A DNA stretch of 64,000 bases from a virus (IMGVR_UViG_3300014911_000001:32001-96000), one strand, 5' to 3'; positions 27,372 to 44,052 are shown, counted from the first letter of the stretch. Notes: generated by a model from the sequence alone, not told the origin. Made by a program: numbers and translations.

Positions 27372-29354
27372 CTACTTATTAGGCCGCCAGCCTGACGCTG
27401 TCTTGAATGCGTAGAACAAGCTCTTCGCCTCCTCTTTACTTATACCGTTCTTTATCGCGATCTGCTCGATGACCAGATCCTCATTAGCAGGAAGAGGAAC
27501 GATATCAATCTCGGATGGATCCTTATCGTCTCTGAATCTGATGAAGCGCGGCGCCCTGAGAGCTTCTTTTCCTAGATCCATCGCGCGGACTTCGATGACT
27601 CTTCCTTTATATTTCTCAGGATGGAGCCACATGTCATCTCTTATTTCGTCTGTGAAGCCGGAACCGACCATCGCGACTACTTTACCCGTAGCATCAGCTG
27701 CTGCTACCTTCCCTGCGGAGTTGGATAACCTTCCTGTACCGGGCAGAATATCAACGATCTTCAAATCATAGGTATCAAATCTTTTTACCTTATACCACTT
27801 ATCCTCTCTTGGCAATCCGTTGGGATCCTTTATAATGATACCTTCGCCCAGTGGCAGATCGTCATCGATCATGTCGCGGAAGAAGTCGGCGGCCTTATCA
27901 GGATCACTGGACTTGAAGTGTATCATCTTTGGCACCGTGAACATCCTCTTGGTCGCGGCTTCAGGTATTTGGTATTTACCATAATAACTCTCATTAAGAA
28001 GCCCGACGATATCCTCGTATATGGTTCTTCTTTCCATGTATGAAGCCGGCGCTGGTATCAGTACTCCGTCCTCTGTGGCCCATCCGATCCAGTCGAATAC
28101 CATTAGTCGGATTAAGCCGCGCTCCTTCTGTGCAAGGACGGCATTCTCGGGACTCGCGTTGAGCATCCCGCTGAGGACATTAGCTCCATCAGGATGCCAC
28201 AGCTCGCCCCGCAGGACCATCCCCACCGCCCGCTCCGGTAGCCATAAGCCCGCGCTCATATGAGGAACATTACCCTCTCTGTGGATCGGATATCCCTCAA
28301 CGGAATACCTTCTACTTACTACAGTAAGAGTAACAGGCACTCCATCAGGCAGATAACCCTCATATTTGAGGAAGGCGCGCTTCAGTGCGTTAATCGCGGC
28401 TCTATCTAAGACTGGTTTGACTATAGCTGGCTGACTCACCTTGAACGACGGACCGGGGTCCTGGCTTTTCTTGGCAGCGGTGAAGACCTTGAGGACCCCA
28501 CCGATGGTCCCCACCGCCCGCCCCGCTTCTTCCCGCGGGCTTACTATGATTTGATCCTCTGTCTTAAGAATCTCATATTCTCCTGTCTCGAAGAACGGTG
28601 CGTTTATTCTTATTATGAAGTTGGCACCATCGACCTTCCGCTCTGCGATAAGCTCCTTACCTTCCTCGACTCTCTTGGTGACATCCTCCGCTGTTTCGAG
28701 GGCTTCATACACTCGCCTCGGGAACCATAATTCCGTAAATCCAGAATGACGGATCGCGATATAATTTTTATCTGTCACCTTAATGAACTCCCACCATCCG
28801 GACCACGGCTCATCTATTTTATACGGTGTGAATACCTCAACAGATTTCAGGTTGGATCTTACTACGCCCGGACTTTGGTATTCGATGGTCATTAAGCCGG
28901 CGCCGTATTGCCCTTCGGGGATTTCACCTTCGAAGTCCTCTGCTAGGATTTTATGATCCTGGGATCTTATCACATTTGTTTTCCATCCGCTTGGTTTCTT
29001 AGGATTATCGTCAGCATGAAGCGGCGGCTTCTTCTTGAACACGAACGATATCAGTCTTTCGCTAGCACTTTTGAGGAGGCGCTGGCTCCGTGTCACAGGA
29101 TATCTGAACCGGAAGTCCCAGTGAAGCCCCGCCGCCCGCGCCTCATGCCTATGCACCGTCACCCTAGTAGGATATGGTTTCAGAGGTCTTAGCTCCATGT
29201 TCTTCTTATAGAGCGCCCGCTTCGTGGATCCCTTAATAACACGCTTTGCGGCTATCTGTGTATACGCTTTAATGAGACCGTTAGTAACAGCCTTATGCAG
29301 GAGAGCACCGGTTATCTTCGTACCAAGGGTTGCTGCTATGTGCCACATTTGCAC
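27372..29354 (-). CDS. ATP-dependent DNA ligase with N-terminal LigD-type 3'-phosphoesterase domain
   Basis: HxA...LHWDFR and DH...FEGEIPEGQYGAG (PE domain); ERKVDG, GE, FD, EGIIIK, WYKVK; OB domain VGSGFT, LRAPRF. Confidence 0.85.
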   Translation of the reverse strand: MQMWHIAATLGTKITGALLHKAVTNGLIKAYTQIAAKRVIKGSTKRALYKKNMELRPLKPYPTRVTVHRHEARAAGLHWDFRFRYPVTRSQRLLKSASERLISFVFKKKPPLHADDNPKKPSGWKTNVIRSQDHKILAEDFEGEIPEGQYGAGLMTIEYQSPGVVRSNLKSVEVFTPYKIDEPWSGWWEFIKVTDKNYIAIRHSGFTELWFPRRVYEALETAEDVTKRVEEGKELIAERKVDGANFIIRINAPFFETGEYEILKTEDQIIVSPREEAGRAVGTIGGVLKVFTAAKKSQDPGPSFKVSQPAIVKPVLDRAAINALKRAFLKYEGYLPDGVPVTLTVVSRRYSVEGYPIHREGNVPHMSAGLWLPERAVGMVLRGELWHPDGANVLSGMLNASPENAVLAQKERGLIRLMVFDWIGWATEDGVLIPAPASYMERRTIYEDIVGLLNESYYGKYQIPEAATKRMFTVPKMIHFKSSDPDKAADFFRDMIDDDLPLGEGIIIKDPNGLPREDKWYKVKRFDTYDLKIVDILPGTGRLSNSAGKVAAADATGKVVAMVGSGFTDEIRDDMWLHPEKYKGRVIEVRAMDLGKEALRAPRFIRFRDDKDPSEIDIVPLPANEDLVIEQIAIKNGISKEEAKSLFYAFKTASGWRPNK

Positions 29355-31680
29355 CTCCTTATATAACCTTTTTCACATTGAATTTTTCTACGAGGGCATC
29401 AGCCATCTTCGCAGCACATTTTATACAGTATGGCCCGAAGGTTTTCTCCTTCTGGAACGCTCGGTAATCATCCTCATTATTACTGGTTTTTCTTATATTA
29501 CCAGCAATGATGAGGAATGCGAGGTCCTTCGGACCATAATTTTTACCACATATTTTACATGTCCACTTTTTACTTTTTCTGAATAGCATATCTCTACTCC
29601 TTTTGATGTTGTTTACTCTTGAGTTCTTCGTGAAATTCAGCAACAGCTTCTTCTACCTTAGTGGAAGGCGTGATAAACAGAGTAATACCATTGAACTCTA
29701 GATCGATATACACACCAAGCCGCTTTGAGGTTTCAATAGCCTCTTCAACGGCATTCACTATGTGTGTACCGGGTAATGGTTTCATGGTGACTACCAATTT
29801 CATCCTGTCCTCCTTGTTGATGTGAGGCCCCGCTCCTGCCCCACCCCGCCGCCCCCATCAACTTATTAAGCTTCTTGGGCGGCCTTCTTCATCGCATAAA
29901 ATTCCTTGAGCTCTTTTGCGCTCAAGCCCAGCTTGACAGCACCAGTCATAATAACAGGCACCGATACCACAGGTGGCGCCATCGTTGCGATGATAGCACC
30001 AGTTATAGCTCTTCCTACATTCAGCATGGATTTCAGCGTGTAATGTTTTATGTCTTTACACTCCTCAGGTCTTATATCCTTGGTTAACGCCGTACTTCCG
30101 AGGACGACCTTGGCAACGGGCCCAACGATCGGCAGCAATGTCAGGCCAGCGCCAATAGCCATGGTTGGCTTATCGGCCTCTATGATCGCGTTTCTTGCCG
30201 TTTGATACTTCTCTCTTATGAAGCCGCGGCTTCTTTCTGCTATATCCTTTATCTTTTCGCGCGGCTTCACCTTCTTTACTTTCATAGCGAGTTTCTTTAC
30301 CACATTACACCTCCTTGCTTCTGATTTTTATTAGCTCCTCCTCTATTTTTATATCAGGATCCATCACAAAGAAGATGAGGCGCGCATACCTGTTAACAGG
30401 ATAATCAGGATAACCACCGATTGTTTCCCATGTGTGCAGACATATTATATATGTATCGCTTTTATACACGACCTCAAGCTCATCATATGTGCAACAGTCT
30501 CTTAGCATGTTACCAGAATTAGCTATCCATCTCTGTCCTACTTCTGCTTTTTCTAGGTCACTCCATGTAATCGTGATCTCGTCGCCCTCTCCATTATAGT
30601 CGAGGGCCGCGAGTCTGAATGCAATGTTCTGCTGCACTGTTTCTACCATCCTAATACCTCCTTGTTTGTTTTAGTTACCACTAAATTGACACCCGCCGGG
30701 CTTCACTCCTCCTCATATTCCTCCTTGTAATATTTTTCCTGATGCGGTAATAACTCCACTAGTGTCCCGCAGTATACGCATTCATATGGAGGATTGTCAA
30801 CCCTGGCGTTCTTTCCTGTCCACATTCCACACACAGGACATATCACATTGCCTGTAACGCTTACATCACCAATAACGGTGACTTTTTCACACATGTTTAC
30901 CTCCTTCCTGCTTTTTTTCCTTACTATTAAACATTATCCTGCGGGCTTCCGCCCCCACCGCCCGCCCCTCAAAGGCGGCGGCTTCTTATATCCTCCGCCG
31001 ATATGATACACAATATAAACGAGGCTAATAGTGGTAACACAGCTAGTAGCATCTTAATTATCCTCCTTTGTGTAAGATTTGCGTCAGATGTGTCAGATTT
31101 GCGTCAGATTAGCTCTTCTTCTTACTGAGTAATGCGCTCATTTGGATGTATACACTTATAAGAACACTTGCCAGCAATCCTACTATCATGCCGGTTACCC
31201 CGACGAACAGGGTAACCCCAACAGCCACCAGAATGCAGCTGATCGCAAAATCGCGCAGGTAGTGATTGCCTCGCAATCCTCTGATCAGCCCTTTCTCCTT
31301 TATTCTCTTCATGCCACGGGTCAGACTTATATACATCCATACTAAGCCCGCGGCCGCCACTAGGTATAGCAACATAATACACCTCCTTGTTTATTCGCCA
31401 TTTGATTGACTAGGCGGTTATGACATCATGGCCGCCAATGCTTCGGTGGCTTCCGGCGGCCCTTCTTCTTCCTCTTTTTGTTTTCAAACGCCTGTCCCGG
31501 CTTGATTGGTCCTATCACTTCTCTTGATAGGTATTTGATCACCTTTGATATTTCGCTGCCGGGCTTCTTCTTCCTTTTGCGGCGCTTCTTGCCCACTCCT
31601 ACTCCTCCTTGGATATGTTTATGCATAATATAGCTATCAATGCGAAGAAGGCTGTATACAACATACTAACCACCTTTGCG

Positions 31681-33749: not shown

Positions 33750-34030
33750 AATCCTGACCTCCTTATCTATTATAGTAGATTTTTATCTTTGCACTCCGTC
33801 CATATCTCCACCTCAATCTCCGCTTTAGCTCGTTTATATCCGCAGCAAAAATCTCATGGAGGCCGTCAGTTCTGACAAACCTCCATGATTTTATATTCCC
33901 CACGTAGGTTGGCTTTCCATTAGGGGCATATGTATGTAGTTTCTCCTTTGTCCTTACTGTTATAACATCAATGTCCTTCAGTAACGGGTAAAATTTCAAC
34001 GACATAAAACACCTCCTTTTTTAATGTGAA

Positions 34031-34081
34031 GCCCGCCATTAAATCGAAGCGCGCAACCCGGCGGGCTTAGGTCGCGCGCTT
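34031..34081 (-). promoter_or_regulatory. 5' leader H-type pseudoknot (PK-h)
   Basis: Stem AAGCGCGCGACC/GGUUGCGCGCUU; loop UAA-GCCCGCC pairs with downstream GGCGGGC; RBS of 34005 follows. Confidence 0.7.
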
Positions 34082-34088
34082 ACTTTTT

Positions 34089-34760
34089 TTATTCCACTTT
34101 ATTGACCCAGTCGGCTTTGGCATACGGCTTGCCGTTTATATACCACCTCTTCTCGGACGTTATGAGCACGGTTTCATAGCGCTCAAGTAGGTAATCGTTA
34201 CGCTCCCTTACCACGACAGCTTTAGGCTCAGGGATGATGGCATCGGTACCATGTGGAGGTGTGGGAGGGAAAATTGAAACGAGCTGACGTGGAAGGATGA
34301 CAAGAGAAAGGTGTTTGCCTTTCTGTTTGATGCGACTCCTGATGGTCTTCTCGAGACCCTTCTCGACGATTACGTAGCCATACGAATCCGCAGCCTCCTG
34401 GGCGAGTGTGTTCGCCATTTTATTCCCTGTTCTGGCTGTGTGTTTTACAATAACCTCCTTATGCTGGTTATCAGCGTAGTACCTAGCCAGCTCATATAAT
34501 TCCATAAGCTCAGGCTTCTTAATATCATATTCTTGGTTAAACTGCTTCACCACTAACTGTGAGTCGCTGTGTATTGTGGTATCACCCTGGATGTACTGGC
34601 TAATGTATGTCGCAAGAACTAGTGCTGCCCATTCAGCCTCGTTGTTTGTTGCCTCCCCAATGGGTATTGATAGTGATATACCAACCTCCGGAATATATAT
34701 CCCAATCCCAGCGGGACCGGGATTGCCTTTTGATGAGCCATCAATGTAAATGTTAGTCAT
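34089..34760 (-). CDS. rnhA: Ribonuclease HI family protein with C-terminal extension
   Basis: [36 protein letters not shown]. Confidence 0.85.
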
Positions 34761-34774
34761 AATACCTCCTTTAT

Positions 34775-35197
34775 TTATGGTTTAACTTTTCGTAAGCCGA
34801 GGCAACCTATCGGTCGTATGCTTCCACTGCTGGTCTTTTCATATACAGGATGAGCAATCGTGTATAACTTGTCTACGTTAGGTAGGTTGAGAGCAACTGC
34901 TGCAGAAGCATATTGATTACTAACAATTATTATATCAGCATCATCAGGGATGGGATCAATATCCTGTATCCTCTGTGTTATAACTGGGATCATAACCTCA
35001 CCGTTCACTGGACATTCGTAAAGGATGCTCGGAAGGAATTCGGTTTCATGGTGGACATTCAGAAGGATTCCGGAGGGTGGAATTATGGTAACTAGCTTGG
35101 TTTTTTCAGGCTCTATGAAGTATTTCCTGTGCTCACTTATGTAAACGGCGTCCTCAAAAATACATATCTCGTGAGGAGTGCAGTTTAAGATTTTCAT
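34775..35197 (-). CDS. Phage hypothetical protein (NxTPH type)
   Basis: [24 protein letters not shown]. Confidence 0.7.
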
Positions 35198-35219
35198 TAC
35201 ATACCTCCTTTTATTAGGC

Positions 35220-35279
35220 GGGCCTCATTACACCACCATGCAGAGCAGCAGGGCGAGGCCCTTAACCCTGAAGCTCTGC
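35220..35279 (-). promoter_or_regulatory. 5' leader pseudoknot (PK-g)
   Basis: Loop UAA-GGGCCUC pairs with GAGGCCC; RBS of 35197 follows. Confidence 0.7.
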
Positions 35280-35294
35280 GAAGAAAGAGAGCTA

Positions 35295-35627
35295 TTAGGA
35301 CAAGCGTTCTGCTTCCTGTCTAATCCGAACGGCATCCCTTACTACCTCTAACAGCGAAGGCGGTATAACCCTATTGTTCGAGGTTTTCCCAGTGCGCAAA
35401 TCAACTGCGACAGCACAATCATGCTCGTAAAAGTATACTATATCCCCATCCGGGAAGAATGTTCCATTAGCAGTAGCAACATTATAAATCAGATCGTTGG
35501 TGTATTCGCCGGGATCGCGATATGGTGTATAATGATCCTGAGCGTCCGGTGTTTCACAACCGGTAGTGCTTCTCACACATACATCACACCTGCCACTTCT
35601 ACACAGACGGCACTTATCAAATAACAT
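35295..35627 (-). CDS. Cys-rich hypothetical protein
   Basis: CxxC...CxxC N-terminus; RBS. Confidence 0.65.
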   Translation of the reverse strand: MLFDKCRLCRSGRCDVCVRSTTGCETPDAQDHYTPYRDPGEYTNDLIYNVATANGTFFPDGDIVYFYEHDCAVAVDLRTGKTSNNRVIPPSLLEVVRDAVRIRQEAERLS

Positions 35628-35654
35628 GATAACCTCCTTATTTTAATGTTTTAT

Positions 35655-35706
35655 GCCCGCCATTAACCAAGCCAGCAAGGACCGGCGGGCTTAGCCCTCA
35701 CTGACT
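35655..35706 (-). promoter_or_regulatory. 5' leader pseudoknot (PK-f)
   Basis: Loop UAA-GCCCGCC pairs with GGCGGGC; RBS of 35627 follows. Confidence 0.7.
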
Positions 35707-35726
35707 ATTAATTTCCAACTAATTGA

Positions 35727-36095
35727 CTACACAAGTGACGGGCCGAGGGCATCCTCTATTTTGGGACGCCCATACTCAACCTTCCACCCATTTTTAGGCG
35801 GAAGGTTGCGGACCCACCAGTCATACCACTGGCGGTCCATCACCTTTATAAGTTTGGATCGCTTGAAAAACACAGCGATCCACTTCCTTCTTCCCCCAGA
35901 ACGAGGGGAGAAAAACCATATAATCTCATTGGGTCGCACCTTGCCTGTTTTAACAAGATGCGACCACTGCGACCCAGTATTCACATTCTGGGCCGCTAAA
36001 ATAAACTCGTAATGGTTGCGCCACCTTTCGATGGCGCTCTCCCCGGATAACAACTTGGGGAGGTTGATTCTCAAGAAGTTAGTTAATGATAACAT
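35727..36095 (-). CDS. Hypothetical protein, paralog of 4362-4706; start trimmed to 36095
   Basis: GAGGAGG before ATG 36095; N-terminus matches paralog. Confidence 0.75.
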   Translation of the reverse strand: MLSLTNFLRINLPKLLSGESAIERWRNHYEFILAAQNVNTGSQWSHLVKTGKVRPNEIIWFFSPRSGGRRKWIAVFFKRSKLIKVMDRQWYDWWVRNLPPKNGWKVEYGRPKIEDALGPSLV

Positions 36096-36119
36096 AATAC
36101 ACCTCCTCTTTTGGAGGTT

Positions 36120-36175
36120 GCCTGCCACTTTTACCCACAGATAAGGCGAGGCCGGCAGGCTTAACCCCGCCTTAT
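36120..36175 (-). promoter_or_regulatory. 5' leader pseudoknot (PK-e)
   Basis: Stem AUAAGGCGGGGU/GCCUCGCCUUAU; loop UAA-GCCUGCC pairs with GGCAGGC. Confidence 0.7.
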
Positions 36176-36285
36176 CTTACTACTCCAGCTCATTGACTCC
36201 ATCACGAGCCAACAAGCCGGCCAAACCCTCCGTCACCCTCGCGGCACCGCTCCTCGCAGGCCGCACACAGGGGAGGAGGGCTTGG

Positions 36286-36353
36286 GGAGGCCTCTTAGAC
36301 CCTCTGTCGAGGGAGCTCCAGCGCCACGCCAAGGCGGGCCTCCAGTGCTGGAG
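36286..36353 (-). ncRNA. HDV-like ribozyme variant Rz1
   Basis: P1 CUCCAGC/GCUGGAG, P2 GGAGGCC/GGCCUCC, P3 GCC/GGC, L3 UUGGCGU, P4 CCCUC/GAGGG, J4/2 UCUAA. Confidence 0.8.
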
Positions 36354-36457
36354 TAGCCCCCGGCACGGGGGCTTCATTCTTTTTTCTCTCCACCTCCTTT
36401 CTAGCGGGATGAGCTAGCCCGGCCACCTAGCCCATCCCGCGGTTTAAGGTTTAACCT

Positions 36458-38857
36458 TTAATCGAGCTTCCAGAAGTTGAGCCAAAATTCGCGATCGGCA
36501 TTAGCAAGAGGATGAAGACCAGCAGGAGTTGTAATCCTAAGAAGCCGCGCGATTTCCCAGTTTCGCTTCCGACCAGTATGAAGTTCCACAAGAAATCTCA
36601 CATGAGATTCAAGTTCAGATTCGGTACCAGCAACAATTGCAAGGAAGTCGTTCTCAGCAACGGTAAGAGATTTCCAAGTGGTAAGAATTGCCTGAGGTTC
36701 AAACGCAGCAAGAAGTTTACGGAATCGCCGGTTGAGTCTCCGGAAGTTCCTAGTAAGAAGTATACGTAGCTCAGCAATCCTGCTGTTGAGGAAGCGCCTA
36801 CGCCGATCCAGTTCCCGTCTCCTATTTTTGAGGGTAGCCAGAGCATCGGATAGGGTATTAAGCCTAGGTAGCAGCCACTTTTCCATTTTCTGCCTCAGAA
36901 CTTCGTTTCTGATCCCAGATACTAGGAACCTGACTTTAGTTTCAGGTTTCGCATTAGCGAAGAGTCTCCGGCTCCGATTAACTACCGTATCAACCGCCGT
37001 CACTTTCTCCGCAAGAGCATTCACTTCATTTTCTATCTTCCGTATCCGAGAGAGCATCCGTCCAAACATGCGCCTCCTTATGCGATCCCACTTGAGGAAC
37101 AATGCCTTAACTTCTGGATCAATGGTGCCATCAGGAATAAGATCCTTAAGAGACCTAACTTCTGGCTCAGCAAACTTAACTTCAGGAATAAATTCAGCAA
37201 GAGGACCTGTCGGAGTTATGGCTGCTGGATCAGCTTTCGCGGTTCGGTTAGTGATCATTTGAGTAATAGTATCAAGCCTGGCAGTCGTACTCGCGAGTAG
37301 ATGCAGTCCCGCTTCTACCTCATGACGAAGCTCCGGTTCTTTACCATTAGCAAGATTCACCGCAGCTTGGAATAGCGCTCCAGCTTTCGCAATAAGATCC
37401 ACATTAATCTCAGTATCAGAAAGAAGCATCCTAGTGAAGCCAGCATCTGCCCGTGCGATCATCTCCTTCCCTAGCTCAATATTTTCCACTTCAGTACTAG
37501 GATCCATTCTCCACTTCCCGAAAGAGATTTCTTTTATCTTGCTTCGTATGCTATCGAAGAATTCCTTAGCAACAAGAGGCTCCTTGAAGACCTTGGATGC
37601 CGCGGCGAGAGCCACTTTGTCGCCATCGGCATCCCATCCGCTAGGCATATCTGCAGGGTGTACCAGAATCGCATGCGCACGATGGTCAACAATAATAGGA
37701 AGGATAAGAGTATCACCAGGCAAGATGGGCGACTTCTGTATGAGTAGGAGTTCTCCATCTTTCAGACCAAGCATACGTGCAATCACAGGAGGAATAACAG
37801 CAGTGCCGGGATGTGCATTCTGAAATCCCAGATAGAAGCCCGGGCCTAGTCTCAACTTCCGAAGTGCGATCTTTAAGTGGTCCAGAAGCACTCTCCGCAG
37901 GAAGCCTGCCTCCTTTATGAGGCCGAATTTCCGCAGAATATCAGCAGTCAGAGTCAGCACTGCACTAGGTTCATTGATCGGATCAGCGTTTTTAACAAGG
38001 ATATCAGCCGCTACCTCAGGATCAGAAAAACCATTAATAGCTTCAGCAATCTGCTCCTGAATCCGTTCAACAAACTCAGGCGCTGGATTAACATTCCATC
38101 CGAGTTTCCTTGGCAGAAGGAACCAGCGCGGCAGAGCTTGGCTGAGACTGATGCCACCCGCGAATACGGCACCAACCTCATGCAGCATGATGGTTCGCCC
38201 GAGTTCGAGTACGAAGCGCCGCCTCTTGATGAGTTTTGCGGTGTCAGCATCAGCGACGATATCAGTCCCTGTCTCTATCTCAGTAAGAACTTTATCAGCA
38301 AGAACCTCATCTCCCAGATACAACATCAGCCTCTGGAACCCGACTCTGCCGGGAAGAACTGGTACCGCTATCCCTTTCAGTCCAATAGCTGTAATCTTAA
38401 AACCACGTTTAATAAGAGCACGAGTTACCGCAGGGATATCAGCTTCTGTAGGAGCATGAGCACGCGCAACCAGCTCTGTAAACCTCTCGGACACGAAGAA
38501 AATTCCGTCTACACCCATTTTAGCATCGAGCTTGAGGCCGCGAACATCCACATTAGCCACTCGCTCAGGTTTAAAGTGCCAGCCCTTATTTGGGATCTCC
38601 GGAGTTGTCATCATCTGAATTCGCTTACCAGGAAGAGTTCTCAGATCAAATCCGTGATCGCCGAGGATATCTGCAATCACCTTATTAACCTTATCAATAG
38701 CAGAAGCAGGAACTACTCTAAAGACCCGACAATCAGGAACCATGGTTGGTTTCATTGGAAGATCAGAGTTCAGATCAGGATCAAATGCGAAGAAGACACT
38801 AGCACCAGCTTCAGCGAATAGAATAGCAAGAGGAGACTTCGGTATTCTTTCCATCAT
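36458..38857 (-). CDS. Putative single-subunit double-psi beta-barrel RNA polymerase (YonO / cellular RdRP-like architecture)
   Basis: Ordered motifs DGIFFVS, GLKG, QKSP, WDADGD; AAAGGAGGT before ATG at 38857/38854. Confidence 0.6.
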   Translation of the reverse strand: MMERIPKSPLAILFAEAGASVFFAFDPDLNSDLPMKPTMVPDCRVFRVVPASAIDKVNKVIADILGDHGFDLRTLPGKRIQMMTTPEIPNKGWHFKPERVANVDVRGLKLDAKMGVDGIFFVSERFTELVARAHAPTEADIPAVTRALIKRGFKITAIGLKGIAVPVLPGRVGFQRLMLYLGDEVLADKVLTEIETGTDIVADADTAKLIKRRRFVLELGRTIMLHEVGAVFAGGISLSQALPRWFLLPRKLGWNVNPAPEFVERIQEQIAEAINGFSDPEVAADILVKNADPINEPSAVLTLTADILRKFGLIKEAGFLRRVLLDHLKIALRKLRLGPGFYLGFQNAHPGTAVIPPVIARMLGLKDGELLLIQKSPILPGDTLILPIIVDHRAHAILVHPADMPSGWDADGDKVALAAASKVFKEPLVAKEFFDSIRSKIKEISFGKWRMDPSTEVENIELGKEMIARADAGFTRMLLSDTEINVDLIAKAGALFQAAVNLANGKEPELRHEVEAGLHLLASTTARLDTITQMITNRTAKADPAAITPTGPLAEFIPEVKFAEPEVRSLKDLIPDGTIDPEVKALFLKWDRIRRRMFGRMLSRIRKIENEVNALAEKVTAVDTVVNRSRRLFANAKPETKVRFLVSGIRNEVLRQKMEKWLLPRLNTLSDALATLKNRRRELDRRRRFLNSRIAELRILLTRNFRRLNRRFRKLLAAFEPQAILTTWKSLTVAENDFLAIVAGTESELESHVRFLVELHTGRKRNWEIARLLRITTPAGLHPLANADREFWLNFWKLD

Positions 38858-39018
38858 ATCACCTCCTTTCCGCCGCGGATTTCGTTGCCCTCGGTGCGGC
38901 ACTCCGAGGGTCGCCGGGCTTCGAGCGTCATTGGTGCCAAGGCTGGCCATAGAATGAAGCCCGGAAATTCCATGGCCATGGCCGGGCGCCTCAGCACCTC
39001 TGCCCTCTTTTTATCCAT
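38854..39018 (-). CDS. Putative 54-aa leader ORF coupled to the polymerase gene
   Basis: AAAGGAGGT before ATG 39018; its TGA overlaps the polymerase ATGATG. Confidence 0.4.
   Translation of the reverse strand: MDKKRAEVLRRPAMAMEFPGFILWPALAPMTLEARRPSECRTEGNEIRGGKEVI
38872..38910 (-). promoter_or_regulatory. 5' leader pseudoknot (PK-d) before polymerase RBS
   Basis: Stem CCCUCGG/CCGAGGG; loop GCCGC pairs with GCGGC next to the RBS. Confidence 0.55.
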
Positions 39019-39042
39019 TCTTTCTTACCTCCTTTATAAATA

Positions 39043-39121
39043 GAGGGACTCTTAGGCCCTTAGGCTATTGACCTAAGGGAGCCCCGGCGCCACGACAAGG
39101 CGGTCCCTCAAAAAGCCGGGG
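39043..39121 (-). ncRNA. HDV-like ribozyme variant Rz2
   Basis: P1 CCCCGGC/GCCGGGG, P2 GAGGGAC/GUCCCUC, P3 GCC/GGC, L3 UUGUCGU, P4 CCCUUAGG/CCUAAGGG, J4/2 CCUAA. Confidence 0.8.
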
Positions 39122-39589
39122 TTAACTCAATTTGACATCATTATTATCCTTCTCTTTCTTTATCCACTCTATCAATTCATCCACTAGGCGCTCCACATTA
39201 TAATCATCAATAATAAGAAGCGCCCTCCTGACCTTGTAGCCGAGCACCTCATGCGCTTTTAGCACATGCCTCGGCATCCAAGGCCAGGTCTCATTGTATC
39301 CCCCATTATATTTGATTTGGAGAAGGATTACCTCCTTCTTATGGGGGATACCAATGCTGACGTCGATTTTAAATACGACGTCAGCTTTACTCCCGATAGG
39401 ATAGTCTATTAATTTCCATCCCGCCGGAAGCTTGGAGGATAGTTCTTCAATGAATCTATCCTCCGCTTCGAAGCCAGCTCTATGCGCCTCATGTGCGATA
39501 GAGCTAACCTCGAAATCCGGGCGGATTATTTCATGACATTCCGCCCAGAATTTTCGCGCTATAGTGCGGGCATGCGTTTCCATATCCAT
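39122..39589 (-). CDS. Putative PD-(D/E)xK-fold nuclease
   Basis: GFEAE...KIDV...LLQIK spacing resembles the E...D...QxK variant. Confidence 0.4.
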   Translation of the reverse strand: MDMETHARTIARKFWAECHEIIRPDFEVSSIAHEAHRAGFEAEDRFIEELSSKLPAGWKLIDYPIGSKADVVFKIDVSIGIPHKKEVILLQIKYNGGYNETWPWMPRHVLKAHEVLGYKVRRALLIIDDYNVERLVDELIEWIKKEKDNNDVKLS

Positions 39590-39601
39590 GGTTGCCTCCT
39601 T

Positions 39602-40177
39602 TTACTCGACAAGAACATGATATATTCCATTTATTTTCTTTACTTTCCTTACTCTAAATAAACATTTATCCACAATTACTTCCTCTTCTTCACAATAAGG
39701 TTGCAAATTCAACAATCTCCCCTCTGCTTTAGTCATAAATACAACAGGAACTACATCAGGAAAATTATATCCTTCCCACAAATCCGGGTCATCAAACTCG
39801 TTATCATAACTTCTCTTTTTTCAAATTGCGAAGCGCTTTGCAACTGCATAACGCCTCGTCCAACTCATATTGATAGATATTTTCCTCCCTATCTGAGGGA
39901 TAGCATATACAACATCCCCTCTGAATAATAGTGATCTTACCTTAGGACACCCTAATAACGATATTTTTAAGGCGAGCTTAGAAATATAGATACCTCTCCC
40001 CTTCCACATTCTCAGCAAAGCGATCCTATTGTCTTTTGAAAATATCCCGCACAAAATTCTCAGCTTTTTCAATAACAGCTTGTATTTCATTTGGAGATGG
40101 TTCAGCTTTATTTCCCAACTCCTGTAAAAAACATTCCTTTTAGGATCTTTAATGAATAACGAAATGACCCACCACAT
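39602..40177 (-). pseudogene. ADP-ribosyltransferase-like gene interrupted by in-frame TGA at 39821-39823
   Basis: LFRG and SWT before the stop; frame stays open 72 more codons containing EEEVIV. Confidence 0.6.
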
Positions 40178-40192
40178 TGTTACACCTCCTTT

Positions 40193-40251
40193 TGCCCGTA
40201 TTAGTTTACCAAGGGCACCATCTGACCTGCGGGCATTGATCAGACGGTGCC
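40193..40251 (-). promoter_or_regulatory. 5' leader pseudoknot (PK-c)
   Basis: Stem GGCACCGUCUGAUC/GGUCAGAUGGUGCC; loop UGCCCG pairs with CGGGCA next to the RBS of 40177. Confidence 0.6.
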
Positions 40252-40320
40252 TATGTTACAAAACGGGCACCGTATAGTCATGGTAACAATACGGTGCCCT
40301 CACAACATCCCCTTTTATTA

Positions 40321-40396
40321 GGGTGCTCTTAGACCCTTAGGGATTGGACCTAAGGGAGCCCCTCCACCACGTCAAGGTGGCACCCTATCGGAGGGG
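40321..40396 (-). ncRNA. HDV-like ribozyme variant Rz3
   Basis: P1 CCCCUCC/GGAGGGG, P2 GGGUGC/GCACCC, P3 ACC/GGU, L3 UUGACGU, P4 CCCUUAGG/CCUAAGGG, J4/2 UCUAA. Confidence 0.8.
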
Positions 40397-40449
40397 TAGC
40401 AAGGCCATCATGTGAGGCCTTGCTTTGGCTTGGGCGGCACCTCATCATC

Positions 40450-40746
40450 TTACACATAAAAGCGATCCAACCCCTCAATATGAGGGGTTGTTTTGCTCTC
40501 CCTATCAACGATGTACAAGTTAGTCCCTATCCGAAATATGTCATGATACTTACACGCCTCCGGCTCCACAATAAGCTCTGCATCCTCAGGTATATATCCA
40601 ACCCATCCTTTGTACAAGCACCTCCGCACTAAGACATGAGTAAAACAGCTGGAATCAACAAGTGTAAGTCTATCATCATCATCATCGTAAATTCCGATAT
40701 ACCAGTAGTTATCTCTCACCAAGACTTTAATGACTTTTACCGCCAC
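40450..40746 (-). CDS. Hypothetical protein; GTG start at 40746
   Basis: AAAGGAGG upstream of GTG; the longer ORF start lies within RNA structure. Confidence 0.65.
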   Translation of the reverse strand: MAVKVIKVLVRDNYWYIGIYDDDDDRLTLVDSSCFTHVLVRRCLYKGWVGYIPEDAELIVEPEACKYHDIFRIGTNLYIVDRESKTTPHIEGLDRFYV

Positions 40747-40761
40747 GATAAACCTCCTTTC

Positions 40762-40820
40762 GCCGCACCTCAGTTCAGCCCCCGACACGCATGCGGTGCG
40801 GCATTTACATACGTGTCGGG
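40762..40820 (-). promoter_or_regulatory. 5' leader pseudoknot (PK-b)
   Basis: 14-bp stem; loop AAAU-GCCGCACC pairs with GGUGCGGC abutting the RBS. Confidence 0.7.
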
Positions 40821-40836
40821 ATGCCGCCCAAGCCAT

Positions 40837-40907
40837 CGGACGCTCTTAGACCTAGCCACAAGGCTAGGAGCCCCTCCACCACGTCAAGGTGGCGTCCGTC
40901 GGAGGGG
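40837..40907 (-). ncRNA. HDV-like ribozyme variant Rz4
   Basis: P1 CCCCUCC/GGAGGGG, P2 CGGACGC/GCGUCCG, P3 ACC/GGU, L3 UUGACGU, P4 CCUAGC/GCUAGG, J4/2 UCUAA. Confidence 0.8.
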
Positions 40908-40956
40908 TAGCAAGGCCATGCGAGACCTTGCTTTGTCTGCGGGGGCACCATGAATA

Positions 40957-41190
40957 TTATAACTCTGATGGACGGGGCCTCTGTAACGATTCAAAATATA
41001 GCGATAAAGCCTCCATGAATGTCACAGGAATCCCTTTTTTCTTATACTGGAATGGAGGCGCCGGAACATTACCCAGCACCTCCTTTGTTATTTTTATTGC
41101 AATGTAACCTCTAAGTTCCTTAAACCGGTATGTCTTGATTTCACCATTATTATAAATGGTGATAGCATTCACGTTTTTTGACATCCTCAT
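40957..41190 (-). CDS. Small hypothetical protein
   Basis: GGAGG RBS; sits inside RNA cassette. Confidence 0.65.
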   Translation of the reverse strand: MRMSKNVNAITIYNNGEIKTYRFKELRGYIAIKITKEVLGNVPAPPFQYKKKGIPVTFMEALSLYFESLQRPRPSEL

Positions 41191-41206
41191 TTTATCCTCC
41201 TTTTTC

Positions 41207-41266
41207 GCCGCGCCTTGGTTCTACGCCCAGCATGTACGCGGCGCGGCATTTACGCACATGCTGGGC
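41207..41266 (-). promoter_or_regulatory. 5' leader pseudoknot (PK-a)
   Basis: 15-bp stem; loop AAAU-GCCGCGCC pairs with GGCGCGGC next to the RBS. Confidence 0.7.
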
Positions 41267-41759
41267 TGGCGCCCCCGCAATCCCCTATTAGCCGAGGAAG
41301 CAAATCAAAAATCAAGGGGGCAGGGGGGTCGAAATACAATCCGACCCCCTCAAAATCCACAATAGAGACCTCCTGAATTTTTTGCCGATTTCTTGACCCT
41401 TATGGACCTCCCTGTAGACTCATTCCGACGGGGTACCTTGCGGCATAGGGAGGTGTTCTATGAGGTTGTTGGTTGGACTGGATATGGGCTTGTGATGGTT
41501 ATTGTGTTAGGGTCTGGGGGGTGTGGGACCTCTTGTGGGCTTGTTTGTGACTATGTGGGTTGGTGTGGGCTACCCCTTTTCGACCCTATGGGTCTGCTCT
41601 CTATAAGGCTTCCTGCTTCAGCGAGGGATAGCTAGGCTTATGTGAAGCCCCCGCCAGAGCCCTCTCCACAGGCATAAGTTCGGGCCGCCCCGGCCCTACC
41701 ACCCGTGAGGTGGGTGAGCCCATTTTTTGTGATGTATGTTGTGTGTATGTTAGCATTTT

Positions 41760-42428: not shown

Positions 42429-42824
42429 TCATTTTATCTCCTTATTGTTTTTATCGTTGAAATATGTTTTTCTAAATTCCTCTAGGATAGGTTCATCACC
42501 TGTACCATAGAGGACGGCGTGCATCCATTCAGTTACTTGATCTGCTGTATGGTGTGGAAATACATCCTTCATGCATCCGAAGTATTTTTGCCAGTTGGTT
42601 GGTTTAGGTTTTTTATGTTCTTTTATAGTCCATTTTTTGGTAGCTGTGGCGGATCCGTAGGTTGTGAGGATGAGGCCTATAATTATTATTATTATGGTGT
42701 ATGTAGTGGGATTATTGGTGTAGTGGTGGAGGAGGAAGCCGGCCGCAGTGGTAAGGAGGCCCCAGAATCGTTTGCTTTTCCAGAAGGGTTTGGTGTTATT
42801 ATTGTTATTATCGTGTGTGCTCAT
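42429..42824 (-). CDS. Holin-like two-TM membrane protein
   Basis: KPFWKSKRFWG followed by two hydrophobic helices. Confidence 0.45.
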   Translation of the reverse strand: MSTHDNNNNNTKPFWKSKRFWGLLTTAAGFLLHHYTNNPTTYTIIIIIIGLILTTYGSATATKKWTIKEHKKPKPTNWQKYFGCMKDVFPHHTADQVTEWMHAVLYGTGDEPILEEFRKTYFNDKNNKEIK

Positions 42825-44052
42825 TTTGGATCTCCTTTATGTTATGAAGCCCGCGCTTCAGTATATTAATACTTGCATTATAATCTCTATCGAGGGTTGC
42901 ACCACAGAACGGACATTTATGTATACGATCGTGGAGTGATTTGGGTACCTTATGTCCACATGAGGAGCATGTCTGCGTAGTATATGCTGGGTTAACCTTG
43001 ATGACCTGTGAGCCGTGAAGCCGCGCCTTGTAGGATGTTAGATTGATAAGTGTGTTCCATCCTGCATCGTAGATGTATTTAGAGAGGTGAAGCCGGCGGC
43101 GCTTGCTTACAAGATCACGTATTTTTATATCCTCGAATATAATAATATCATAGTTAGTAGCAAGCTGGTGTGAGATATGATGGAGGAAGCCGCGCCGCAT
43201 GTTAGCTAATCGTTCATGGAGTCTGGCTAGTTTACGCCTCTGTTTCATATAATTAGCACTCCCTCGCTGCTTGCGCGAGAGCTGTTTTTGTACACGCTTT
43301 ATACGTTTTTCGAGTTTGGTGATGAAGCGCGGGTTAGATACAATATTACCATCACTTGATACGATGAGATTCGTAAGCCCGAGATCTATACCGATGATGC
43401 GCTGCTTATTATTAGTATCGATAACGATAGTAGCGTCATTATTATTGGGTACTTCAACTGTTACATATACATACCATCTACCGCTGGGATGTCTTTTTAT
43501 AGTAACATTTTTGGCTTTAGTCCAGTCGATGGGTCGGTGAAGGCGGATTTTTAAGCCGCCGAGTTTGGGTAAATGAATATATGCGAACTTATCATTCAGT
43601 TTCTCAAATTTAATGACAGGATACCCATCCGGATAGTTTTTATGAGTCATCCAAACTTGTGGATATGTAAGTGATAGATATTGATCAGGTTTTTTGGGTT
43701 TAGGCGGACTTATATGTCCTTCTTTATTCCTGATGGCTACAAAGAAACGCTTATATGCCCAGTCAATCTTATCAATTATAGCCTTTAAGACACCTGAATA
43801 AACGAGCCTTAAGGCAGGTTCCTCTCTTTTAAATGCGGTTAGGTTACGTTGCCTCTCAAATTTTGTAGGGGTTCTATGTTCTTCATCCCATATACGTCTG
43901 TATTCATTTATTTCGTAATTATAGAACCAGCAGAGGATGGACAGCCAGTTTTCTAGTTTGTATTCTTGTAGTGTTGTTGGATAGGCTCTGAATTTGTAGG
44001 TGAGGTAGGAAGCCGCCGCCTTATCAGTATTTTTTGATCCCTGTTTATTCAT
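42808..44052 (-). CDS. tnpB: IS200/IS605-family TnpB RNA-guided endonuclease
   Basis: YKFRAYPT, GIDLG, FEDI, YTTQTCSSCG, CPFCG, DRDYNASINI. Confidence 0.92.
   Translation of the reverse strand: MNKQGSKNTDKAAASYLTYKFRAYPTTLQEYKLENWLSILCWFYNYEINEYRRIWDEEHRTPTKFERQRNLTAFKREEPALRLVYSGVLKAIIDKIDWAYKRFFVAIRNKEGHISPPKPKKPDQYLSLTYPQVWMTHKNYPDGYPVIKFEKLNDKFAYIHLPKLGGLKIRLHRPIDWTKAKNVTIKRHPSGRWYVYVTVEVPNNNDATIVIDTNNKQRIIGIDLGLTNLIVSSDGNIVSNPRFITKLEKRIKRVQKQLSRKQRGSANYMKQRRKLARLHERLANMRRGFLHHISHQLATNYDIIIFEDIKIRDLVSKRRRLHLSKYIYDAGWNTLINLTSYKARLHGSQVIKVNPAYTTQTCSSCGHKVPKSLHDRIHKCPFCGATLDRDYNASINILKRGLHNIKEIQNEHTR

Follow-up and report, generated by a model that had tools for sequence, protein, structure and literature searches.

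HDV-like ribozymes cut at their own 5' edge, leaving a ribozyme with a 5'-OH and an upstream RNA with a 2',3'-cyclic phosphate. In synthetic insulators such as RiboJ, which consists of a ribozyme plus a hairpin, the upstream context is removed and the adjacent structure presents the ribosome binding site (RBS), as may occur at the locus described here. In the Tornado design, flanking ribozymes and a stem bring the 5'-OH and 2',3'-cyclic-phosphate ends together. Both designs are engineered, whereas the phage arrangement is natural and conserved. Among natural systems, theta ribozymes are minimal HDV-like ribozymes of gut phages, with a short P4, found at tRNA 3' ends (Kienbeck et al. 2024, PMC10879173). 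Clustered hammerhead ribozymes flank prophage genes and cleave in vitro; the role proposed for them is to turn a long RNA into mRNAs the length of a gene (Perreault et al. 2011, PMC3088659). Ribozyme clusters flanking phage genes have thus been known since 2011, and the first-pass annotation, which knew of no described phage system with the present combination, overlooked them.

Here, a 64,000-nucleotide window (the whole stretch of viral DNA analyzed) was found to carry four HDV-like nested double pseudoknots on the minus strand. In a structural parse, their P1 helices begin at 40907, 40396, 39121, and 36353, which are the cut sites already predicted in the first-pass annotation. The core pattern gave four matches, with none expected by chance. 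A covariance model run without filters scored the four copies at 67 to 100 bits, with the next-best match in the window at 9 bits, and the same four copies were the sole matches in the whole 175,796-bp genome of this uncultured phage. Fold A lies at 40837..40907 (P1 CCCCTCC/GGAGGGG, P2 CGGACGC/GCGTCCG; 82 bits), fold B at 40320..40396 (P2 UAGGGUG/CACCCUA; 100 bits), fold C at 39043..39121 (P1 CCCCGGC/GCCGGGG, P2 GAGGGAC/GTCCCUC; 67 bits), and fold D at 36286..36353 (P1 CUCCAGC/GCUGGAG, P2 GGAGGCC/GGCCUCC; 81 bits), all on the minus strand.

These folds share with HDV-like ribozymes (HDV, CPEB3, and drz) the nested double pseudoknot, in which P1 crosses P2, P3 lies within, and P4 comes after P1, together with a 7-bp P1, a P2, a 3-bp P3 (RCC/GGY), a variable P4, a 7-nt L3 with a U and a G five positions apart, and a J4/2 of the form C-N-A-A. 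A putative P1.1 of 1 to 2 bp would include a U:U, like that of the Ackermannviridae ribozyme (PMC13635239, which also gives a Caenorhabditis briggsae structure). They differ in an invariant C-G first P1 pair, a flipped P1.1, and a conserved bulged A in P2. Across 34 distinct sequences, P1, P2, P3, and P4 were paired in 97.0% of cells, compared with 41 to 51% when the partners were slid, and 22 of the 27 pairs had changed on both sides in a compensatory manner. P2 was 94.7% paired even though it had been left out of the covariance model, and two C-G pairs of P3 were invariant. L3 read U-U-G-N-C-G-U in nearly all copies, the exceptions being one metagenome copy with C5 replaced by U and another with U7 replaced by C. 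This order places U at position 1 and G at position 6, five positions apart, and resembles the essential U20 and G25, which form the metal-site reverse wobble. J4/2, which in HDV-like ribozymes opens with the catalytic cytosine followed by N-R-A, read C-(U/C/G)-A-A, with its first C invariant in the 34 sequences. HDV ribozymes whose structures were solved recently need both G25 and the J4/2 C, and they tolerate U:U in P1.1 (PMC13635239).

Two features depart from the classical core. The first P1 pair was C-G in all 33 scorable sequences, and the G1·U37 wobble, which in HDV and CPEB3 lies next to the scissile phosphate, was absent. P1.1 can form between G at L3 position 3 and the first J1/4 C in all 34 sequences, an orientation flipped relative to HDV, but because these bases never vary, P1.1 receives no support from covariation. 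In addition, the Rfam HDV-type families (HDV_ribozyme, CPEB3, HDV-F-prausnitzii, and the drz families) gave no match that reached the gathering threshold, either in the window or in eight related loci, and none at E<=10 even when a single copy was searched alone. The first-pass identification of an HDV-like fold thus stands for the topology and the invariant core, with the first pair, the flipped P1.1, and the missing Rfam match as its exceptions. As judged from the alignment, the repeated fold is an HDV-like topology with an invariant catalytic-type core. Like theta ribozymes, these are HDV-type folds of tailed phages and would act in cis on phage transcripts (PMC10879173). Theta ribozymes are defined by a P4 reduced to a minimum and by lying no more than about 5 nt from the 3' end of a tRNA; here P4 has 5 to 8 bp plus a loop and the copies lie between protein-coding genes with no tRNA nearby, so that theta identity was ruled out by the full P4 and the protein-coding neighbors.

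The four folds are most likely variant HDV-like ribozymes, each of which would cleave at its own 5' edge. The C-G first pair bears on the alternative that the folds are real but non-cleaving, serving as exonuclease blocks, phage-protein binding sites, or translation spacers on a transcript that stays polycistronic or is cut by the host. In CPEB3, Watson-Crick replacement of the wobble is strongly deleterious, and G1A lowers cleavage from 92% to 3% (PMC8233481); the failure of curated HDV-type models to recognize the elements points the same way. However, the unpaired bases that never vary coincide exactly with the HDV active site (C and the A's in J4/2, U and G in L3), while the helices vary freely, and pure scaffolds rarely fix single-stranded core bases across phages as different as the GC-rich L028, L084, L265, and L266 and the AT-rich L001 and L097. 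The GC-rich hairpin immediately before the predicted cut site also suits a 3'-end protector. On this evidence, a non-cleaving role is unlikely, though it keeps an appreciable share of the probability. A largely mismatched or chimeric P2 in one copy of the related phage L010 and the L3 C-to-U change in the metagenome copy indicate that some copies need not be active.

Around the putative ribozymes, the genes are arranged in units, as the first-pass annotation had described on this strand. Two small cassettes each repeat the full order of clamp arm, pseudoknot, RBS, ORF, clamp arm, hairpin, and HDV-like fold. The 118-aa and 155-aa ORFs lie between 40396 and 39121, the 799-aa ORF lies between 39121 and 36353, and four pseudoknot-led genes follow ribozyme D. 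As in the hammerhead clusters (PMC3088659), one gene or a short run of genes on a phage transcript is enclosed by several motifs lying within a few kilobases. The ribozyme class is different, and the present units add a covarying clamp, a pre-cut hairpin, and a leader pseudoknot, elements that have not been described for those clusters. A GC-rich hairpin at 40910..40931 (minus strand) stands directly 5' of ribozyme A, with UA separating it from the predicted cut site, and it forms in the predicted fold of the cassette 1 RNA. A second lies at 40399..40423 (minus strand), upstream of ribozyme B. Hairpins of differing sequence stand before copies A, B, and D and before the copy in L001. At ribozyme C, the predicted cut would end the upstream message exactly at a stop codon, without a 3' hairpin.

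Both clamp stems of the first-pass annotation were present. In cassette 1, the 5' arm UUGCGGGGGCGCCA (41267..41280, minus strand) forms a 14-bp duplex, with two G-U pairs, with the 3' arm at 40937..40950 (minus strand), which begins 6 nt past the stop codon. In cassette 2, the 5' arm (40820..40835, minus strand) begins 1 nt past ribozyme A and forms a 16-bp duplex with the 3' arm at 40426..40441 (minus strand). For both cassette RNAs, the minimum-free-energy and centroid folds are closed by the clamp (z-scores -7.1 and -6.8). The clamps around small ORFs, 12 to 16 bp long, are conserved with compensatory changes: the cassette 1 clamp is kept with changes in L002, L007, and L010, and the cassette 2 clamp appears in L010 as the compensated variant GGCTTGGTCCTGCCTT/AAGGCAGGGCCAAGCC. 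Their G-U pairs work on the coding strand only. The same search in two non-cassette units gave only 5 to 9 bp.

Seven H-type leader pseudoknots, all on the minus strand, stand 1 to 16 nt upstream of GGAGG, again where the first-pass annotation had placed them. Leader 1 (41207..41266) consists of a 15-bp hairpin and a second pairing, of its loop GCCGCGCC with GGCGCGGC 10 nt downstream; the Shine-Dalgarno sequence (SD) lies 5 nt further on. In leader 2 (40762..40821), the loop GCCGCACC pairs with GGTGCGGC and the SD follows 3 nt later; in leader 3 (40193..40251), the loop UGCCCG pairs with CGGGCA and the SD follows 2 nt later. Leader 4 (36120..36177; GCCUGCC/GGCAGGC; 75 bits) precedes a 122-aa ORF at 36095-35727, and leader 5 (35655..35706; GCCCGCC/GGCGGGC; 86 bits) precedes a 110-aa ORF at 35627-35295. 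Leader 6 (about 35215..35279; GGGCCUC/GAGGCCC), with orthologues in L007 and L010, precedes a 140-aa ORF at 35197-34775, and leader 7 (34029..34081; AAGCCCGCC/GGCGGGCUU; 50 bits) precedes an 80-aa ORF at 34005-33763. Across the alignment, the leader hairpin was 98.5% paired, and the pseudoknot, which was absent from the search model, was paired throughout (100%), and 3 of its 7 pairs had changed on both sides. In leader 1 orthologues, the pairing is kept and the stem and loop sequences differ.

Classical RNase III substrates are built by long-range pairing between the two flanks of a gene, as in the stems around rRNA, and the enzyme also has sites in T7 early mRNA. The clamps, perhaps with the stacked leader hairpin, could likewise be host RNase III sites, so that maturation would depend on the ribozymes together with a host enzyme and would not, as the first-pass annotation had it, proceed without RNase III. 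In predicted folds, the 14- to 16-bp clamp stacks on the 14- to 15-bp leader hairpin to give a near-continuous helix of about 30 bp, as this reading would have it. Nevertheless, the clamps are short for this enzyme and occur in the small cassettes only, and we consider its involvement improbable.

As far as can be read from the sequence, the layout agrees with a polycistronic transcript that processes itself into units whose ends are structured. We lean toward the view that the minus-strand block is one transcript that would cut and organize itself through its own RNA structure. The structures and their conservation are observed; for cleavage, end protection, and a role in translation, the following course may be proposed. 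A single long phage transcript would cover the block, which runs from about 41.3 to 33.7 kb, and on it the four variant ribozymes would fold during RNA synthesis and cut immediately 5' of C40907, C40396, C39121, and C36353. The downstream pieces would start with a compact ribozyme bearing a 5'-OH, and a 2',3'-cyclic phosphate would terminate the upstream pieces, in most cases right behind a GC-rich hairpin. Within the small cassettes, a 12- to 16-bp clamp would join the first bases past one ribozyme to bases past the stop codon, closing the message as a panhandle and shielding the ribozymes from the intervening ORF. The H-type pseudoknot before most RBSs would set the local leader fold and may be an insulator, or else an operator recognized by one common RNA-binding factor. 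The outcome would be gene-sized mRNAs with protected ends, whose stability and translation are set individually. Promoter-like and terminator-like sites in the block interior were not above those of shuffled sequences.

The proteins framed by these elements are mostly unfamiliar to family models; Pfam and PHROGs recognized only the RNase H gene in the block (34760-34089, minus strand), which follows the 140-aa ORF without a leader. The 77-aa ORF of cassette 1 (40957..41190, minus strand) had no Pfam or PHROG match and a homologue in L010 only, at 46% identity. The 98-aa ORF of cassette 2 (40450..40746, minus strand; GTG start) had homologues in L007 (67% identity) and L010 (48%). The 118-aa ORF between ribozymes B and C (39821..40177, minus strand) had no homologue in related loci and no Pfam match even at E<=5, and its earlier label of ART-like is unsupported. 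The 155-aa ORF (39122..39589, minus strand) ends with a stop codon adjoining the predicted cut site of ribozyme C. Its AlphaFold2 model (pLDDT 89.7) had Hjc resolvases and other PD-(D/E)xK nucleases as its best Foldseek matches, which were weak (E about 0.03), and E43, D70, D76, and Q91-x-K93 were invariant. The protein is probably a PD-(D/E)xK-fold nuclease according to this model, in line with its annotation as a nuclease, for which the fold support is weak.

Upstream of the 799-aa ORF lies a 54-codon ORF (38854..39018, minus strand) with a strong SD and a stop that overlaps the polymerase start (ATGA). It contains a further hairpin and pseudoknot (38978-38914) and is open in four relatives at 80 to 98% identity. 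The 799-aa ORF (36458..38857, minus strand) encodes the putative polymerase. Two-barrel polymerases of the YonO and cellular RdRP-like kind (PF05183) are recognized by a DxDGD metal motif preceded by (K/R)xPxxxPGD, together with a family-model match. In this protein, QKSPxLPGDT and GWDxDGDKV are invariant, and ESM-atlas features matched PF05183 RdRP clusters at 0.94 to 0.95. There was no Pfam match (including the PF05183 model), PDB-profile match, or PHROG match, and the AlphaFold2 model was poor and unfit for a fold search. The motifs and the language model thus speak for the first-pass call of a phage RNA polymerase, which the family and structure profiles did not bear out; the protein is probably a single-chain two-barrel RNA polymerase, YonO/RdRP-like. 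Behind ribozyme D lies a highly conserved non-coding tail (36180..36285, minus strand), and the region 36470-36180 is 91% identical among five phages, with frame-shifting indels.

In the related phages L002, L003, L007, and L010, ribozyme copies occupy the same gene boundaries, and L002 and L010 carry five ribozymes and one extra cassette. In L001 and L097, phage contigs that are unrelated, single genes are flanked by two copies, likewise intergenic and co-oriented with the genes; this position and orientation hold for every copy. The fold, the clamps, and the leaders were conserved and covarying in related phages, for which the first-pass annotation had proposed covariance models. Its suggestion that the elements co-occur with the polymerase holds in close relatives but does not extend further: the ribozyme was absent from the distant polymerase loci L246-L249, and phage records with the ribozyme, among them a complete genome of 166.8 kb, had no polymerase homologue.

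In relatives, the ORFs of 77, 98, and 118 aa are either missing or poorly conserved, and the framing elements stay. In T4-type phages, repeats of a promoter plus a stem-loop have been proposed as homology patches for swapping. The modules here might similarly act mainly as DNA patches for the exchange of small-ORF cassettes, with the RNA folds secondary. Cassette content does vary among close relatives while the framing elements remain (the extra cassette in L002 and L010), and the chimeric P2 in one L010 copy is what recombination between copies would give. Compensatory changes, strand-specific G-U pairs, and a conserved single-stranded core nevertheless indicate selection on RNA, and patching complements an RNA function instead of replacing it; as the main role, it is quite unlikely. 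A self-processing transcript built of repeated RNA modules would itself let phages exchange ORF cassettes.

It is very improbable that the small cassettes go on to become circular mRNAs, for which cleavage by two flanking ribozymes would supply the 5'-OH and 2',3'-cyclic phosphate, the clamp would keep the 3' end (hairpin and CUA) next to the 5' end of the ribozyme belonging to the same cassette, in the geometry of the original junction, and a host RtcB-type ligase or the reverse ribozyme reaction would seal them. If true, the cassettes would be a natural equivalent of the engineered Tornado RNAs. RtcB is not encoded in the phage genome, which does encode a conserved ligase of 660 aa carrying a LigD-type 3'-phosphoesterase domain.

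Four copies of an HDV-like fold were found on the minus strand, with P1 starting at 40907, 40396, 39121, and 36353 (copies A, B, C, and D), exactly the cut positions predicted in the first-pass annotation. The conserved-core pattern gave four matches with none expected by chance, and the starts were set by a parse of P1, P2, P3, and P4. P1 and P2 were perfectly complementary in all four copies despite their differing sequences. A covariance model of nine sequences, which included P1, P3, and P4 only and was run without filters, scored the four copies at 67 to 100 bits and the rest of the window at ≤9 bits; searched against the whole genome, it returned the same four copies and no others. The fold was also present in the loci around three close homologues of the large protein (L002 to L010), in other virus contigs (L001, L028, L084, L086, and L097), and in 17 metagenome stretches. 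A loose DNA pattern produced a flood of matches in both collections, of which structural filtering left only L028, L084, and L097 as real. MAFFT alignments misregistered P1 and the leader stems, and model-based alignments were used instead. For the combined set (52 matches, 34 distinct sequences), standard pairs occupied 97.0% of cells, compared with 41 to 51% when the 3′ partners were slid by 1 to 3 columns, and both-sided changes were seen in 22 of 27 pairs. P2, which crosses P1 and lies outside the model, was 94.7% paired, with seven of eight pairs doubly changed. By this covariation, that of the unmodelled P2 included, the nested double pseudoknot exists and is maintained by selection at the RNA level. 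One copy in a close relative (L010:2782-2858) combined a 5′ P2 strand of one type with a 3′ P2 strand of another; six of seven positions were paired, three as G-U wobbles, and the copy looks like a recombinant between neighbouring copies.

The elements share their topology and helix lengths with HDV-type ribozymes, including a 7-bp P1 and a 3-bp P3 with two invariant C-G pairs. L3 is a 7-nt U-U-G-N-C-G-U loop with U and G five positions apart, as are U20 and G25, and in J4/2 (C-N-A-A) the C is invariant. HDV ribozymes solved recently require both G25 and the J4/2 cytosine, and one of them, from an Ackermannviridae phage, carries a U:U pair within P1.1 (PMC13635239), which would also form in the present copies. 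However, the first P1 pair was C-G in every sequence, in contrast to the G·U wobble of the HDV type. In addition, the sole Watson-Crick pair of P1.1 was flipped (its G lies in L3 and its C follows P1), and P2 contained a conserved bulged A. For the CPEB3 ribozyme, the change of G1 to A, which turns the wobble into a Watson-Crick pair, lowered cleavage from 92% to 3% (PMC8233481). No Rfam family was matched at gathering thresholds in the window and eight loci, and at E ≤ 10 no model detected the elements in the 33.5- to 42-kb region or in a single copy supplied as the only input; the only notable match, a sub-threshold RAGATH-18, lies outside the finding. Because of these likenesses and departures and the lack of an Rfam match, the elements were filed as a new variant with HDV-like architecture. 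Self-cleavage by the predicted ribozymes is likely, since the helices drift but the single-stranded bases that never vary are those of the active site. The main rival explanation, a structural role of the folds without cleavage, has the CPEB3 result on one side and the conserved active-site bases on the other, and it seems to us rather unlikely. If the copies are active, an HDV-type active site can function despite a flipped P1.1 and a scissile position occupied by a Watson-Crick C-G pair, and wider search patterns would be available for finding such ribozymes.

For the two small-ORF cassettes (77 and 98 aa), bases from 0 to 2 nt after the upstream element paired with bases from 6 to 8 nt after the stop codon. 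The resulting duplexes of 14 and 16 bp correspond to the clamp arms that had been proposed to enclose these ORFs. The same search on the nuclease and polymerase units, used as an internal control, gave only 5 to 9 bp, mostly G-U. When single cassettes were folded, the clamp was the closing helix in the minimum-energy and centroid structures of both, with z-scores of −7.06 and −6.77 against 100 shuffles. The clamps were kept in relatives with compensatory changes (e.g., GGCTTGGGCGGCATC/GGTGCCGCCCAAGCC in the window versus GGCTTGGTCCTGCCTT/AAGGCAGGGCCAAGCC in L010), and a third clamped cassette was found in L002 and L010 (AGGCCGGCCGGT/ACCGGCCGGCCT). A GC-rich hairpin and then UA stood directly before P1 in copies A, B, and D and in one L001 copy, with differing sequences; copy C abutted the stop codon of the 155-aa ORF instead. 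The small cassette ORFs were poorly conserved or absent in relatives, and the RNA framing persisted.

RNase III processing at the clamps is a partial rival for which the long duplexes of the two cassettes would be the substrate, while the control units offer only short, G-U-rich pairings; we regard it as unlikely. Since the clamps contain G-U pairs, the pairing works on the coding strand only, which ruled out an explanation of the clamps by inverted repeats or a cruciform in the DNA. The other partial rival, a part in cassette exchange at the level of DNA, can be set beside the recombinant-looking copy and the inconstant ORFs on the one hand and this strand-specific pairing on the other, and it appears quite improbable.

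A scan for hairpins with a loop complementary to sequence further downstream identified seven to eight leaders in the window, with stems of 13 to 15 bp, loop pairings of 6 to 9 nt, and GGAGG 1 to 16 nt later. Background matches of the scan had stems of 7 to 9 bp and 6-nt pairings without such context. Loop and partner covaried between copies (GCCGCGCC/GGCGCGGC, GCCGCACC/GGTGCGGC, GCCGCGG/CCGCGGC, GCCUGCC/GGCAGGC, GCCCGCC/GGCGGGC, and GGGCCUC/GAGGCCC). Across the 24 distinct sequences of a hairpin-only model, the unmodelled pseudoknot was 100% paired and three of seven pairs were doubly changed, which bears out the leader pseudoknots of the first-pass annotation. Two such leaders were found in L246, a locus without ribozymes whose polymerase relative is only 37% identical. 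Thus, the leaders are spread more widely than the ribozymes in this phage group.

The most economical reading is that a polycistronic transcript would process itself into gene-sized units with structured ends, in which the clamps and leaders would keep the variable ORFs from interfering with ribozyme folding and with ribosome-binding sites. The boldest reading, that the clamped cassettes are circularised, is highly improbable; the closing helices would bring the ends together, and no RtcB is encoded in the phage genome. For self-processing, clustered hammerheads flanking prophage genes are a direct precedent for the arrangement (PMC3088659), and theta ribozymes, which are located at tRNAs, are HDV-type ribozymes already known from phages (PMC10879173). 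The earlier remark that no phage system with this combination was known passed over the hammerhead clusters; the novelty of the present locus lies in the ribozyme variant and in the clamps, cut-site hairpins, and leader pseudoknots that are conserved together with it. Since 2011, it has been an open question why self-cleaving ribozymes occur in clusters in phages and bacteria. The locus is a compact test system, with four copies of one class and partners (hairpin at the cut site, clamp, and leader pseudoknot) that covary across related phages, so that break-and-restore mutations can be designed directly for each pairing. The modular framing of fast-evolving small ORFs also makes it a natural model for RNA-level gene insulation.

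The expected co-occurrence of ribozymes and polymerase held only in part. Close relatives carried ribozymes at the same gene boundaries, with five copies each in L002 and L010. The distant polymerase loci had no ribozymes, and the ribozyme-bearing phage records, including a complete 166.8-kb genome, had no polymerase; in L001 and L097, two copies flanked single genes. Thus, on this distribution, the predicted ribozyme is mobile among phage operons and is not tied to this polymerase as a partner.

The large ORF (36458..38857, minus strand) truly starts at the ATG at 38857, behind AAAGGAGGTGAT, and encodes 799 aa. Its invariant motifs QKSPxLPGDT and GWDxDGDKV resemble the (K/R)NPxLHPGD and DxDGD motifs of two-barrel RNA polymerases (e.g., cellular RdRPs and YonO), and an ESM-atlas feature search returned PF05183 clusters at 0.94 to 0.95. 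However, the protein had no Pfam, PHROG, or PDB match (PDB sequence and profile searches), with nothing relevant in Pfam at E ≤ 10, and its AF2 model was unusable (pLDDT 44). The PF05183 model had no match on the phage genome and missed the protein, tblastn against phage records gave nothing, and a profile search of the protein collection gave no new relatives. The label of phage RNA polymerase is therefore reasonable but unproven. Among billions of proteins, three close and two distant relatives were found; of the two distant ones (L246:6497-9826 and L247:6943-10102), one is an RNase H fusion and the other is directly preceded by an RNase H gene. The window has its RNase H gene 1.7 kb downstream of the polymerase-like gene, and these arrangements are a hint that the two proteins are functionally connected. 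An ORF of 54 codons behind a strong SD (38854-39018, minus strand) precedes the polymerase gene and is open in four relatives; its stop overlaps the start of the large ORF (ATGA), and a hairpin-pseudoknot leader lies inside it (38978-38914). The arrangement suggests either translational coupling or an upstream ORF with a regulatory role.

For the 155-aa ORF, a good AF2-type model (pLDDT 89.7) best matched Hjc resolvases and other PD-(D/E)xK nucleases, which favours the nuclease label, but the matches were weak (E about 0.03). The 118-aa ORF had no family match and no homologue in relatives, and its ART-like label found no support. The 290 nt from the polymerase stop to the next leader (36180-36470, minus strand) were 91% identical in five phages, higher than the flanking coding DNA. 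This stretch is non-coding because indels between relatives shift the frame, by which a 65-codon ORF (36377-36180) was ruled out as a gene. It contains a long hairpin, an SD-like AGGAGG and an ATG immediately ahead of ribozyme D, and, behind the ribozyme, ~105 nt of conserved tail. The last bases of the tail, GCUGGAG, repeat the 7-mer that forms the 3′ strand of P1 in ribozyme D, and this repeat could give an alternative pairing.

The IMG/VR virus record (175,796 bp), of which the window covers bases 32001 to 96000, was rated complete by CheckV, and the minus-strand gene block has a G+C content of 45 to 50%, versus 36 to 41% in most of the window. Upstream of the block (higher coordinates, same strand) are genes for TnpB and dUTPase and two small ORFs, along with ~470 nt of non-coding DNA; downstream come the RNase H gene, a large number of small ORFs, and the gene of a 660-aa ligase. 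The operon promoter is probably at 41315-41285, although no sigma-70 site could be clearly matched. A terminator-like hairpin (41345-41318, minus strand) is followed by a T-rich run. Within the block, promoter-like and terminator-like sites were no commoner than in shuffled sequence, which fits one long transcript as weak evidence. About 200 nt of C/A-rich, G-poor, non-coding DNA (41400-41600, minus strand), a short way upstream of the first cassette, separate the terminator-like hairpin from the RAGATH-18-like element (41610-41672, minus strand; 29.3 bits versus a gathering score of 44.9; E = 0.027). This element lies ~1.1 kb downstream of the TnpB gene (OrfB_IS605 and Cas12f1-like TNB; 42808-44052, minus strand), with the two small ORFs and the dUTPase gene between them. 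IS607-type TnpB nucleases are guided by RAGATH-18-derived RNAs (PMC11061315); in the present genome, the scaffold of the guide RNA would lie apart from the gene of its nuclease. TnpB also adjoins dUTPase in L003, L004, and L007. The 660-aa protein (27372-29354, minus strand) has a LigD-type 3′-phosphoesterase domain and a ligase OB domain and is kept in every close relative; that a phage with predicted 2′,3′-cyclic-phosphate transcript ends has an end-healing ligase may be coincidence or relevant. Further down the same strand, a conserved GC-rich hairpin with a loop-to-downstream pairing (GCGGGC/GCCCGC; 30941-30978, minus strand; L010:11088-11125) stands 35 nt before an SD and differs in type from the leaders above.
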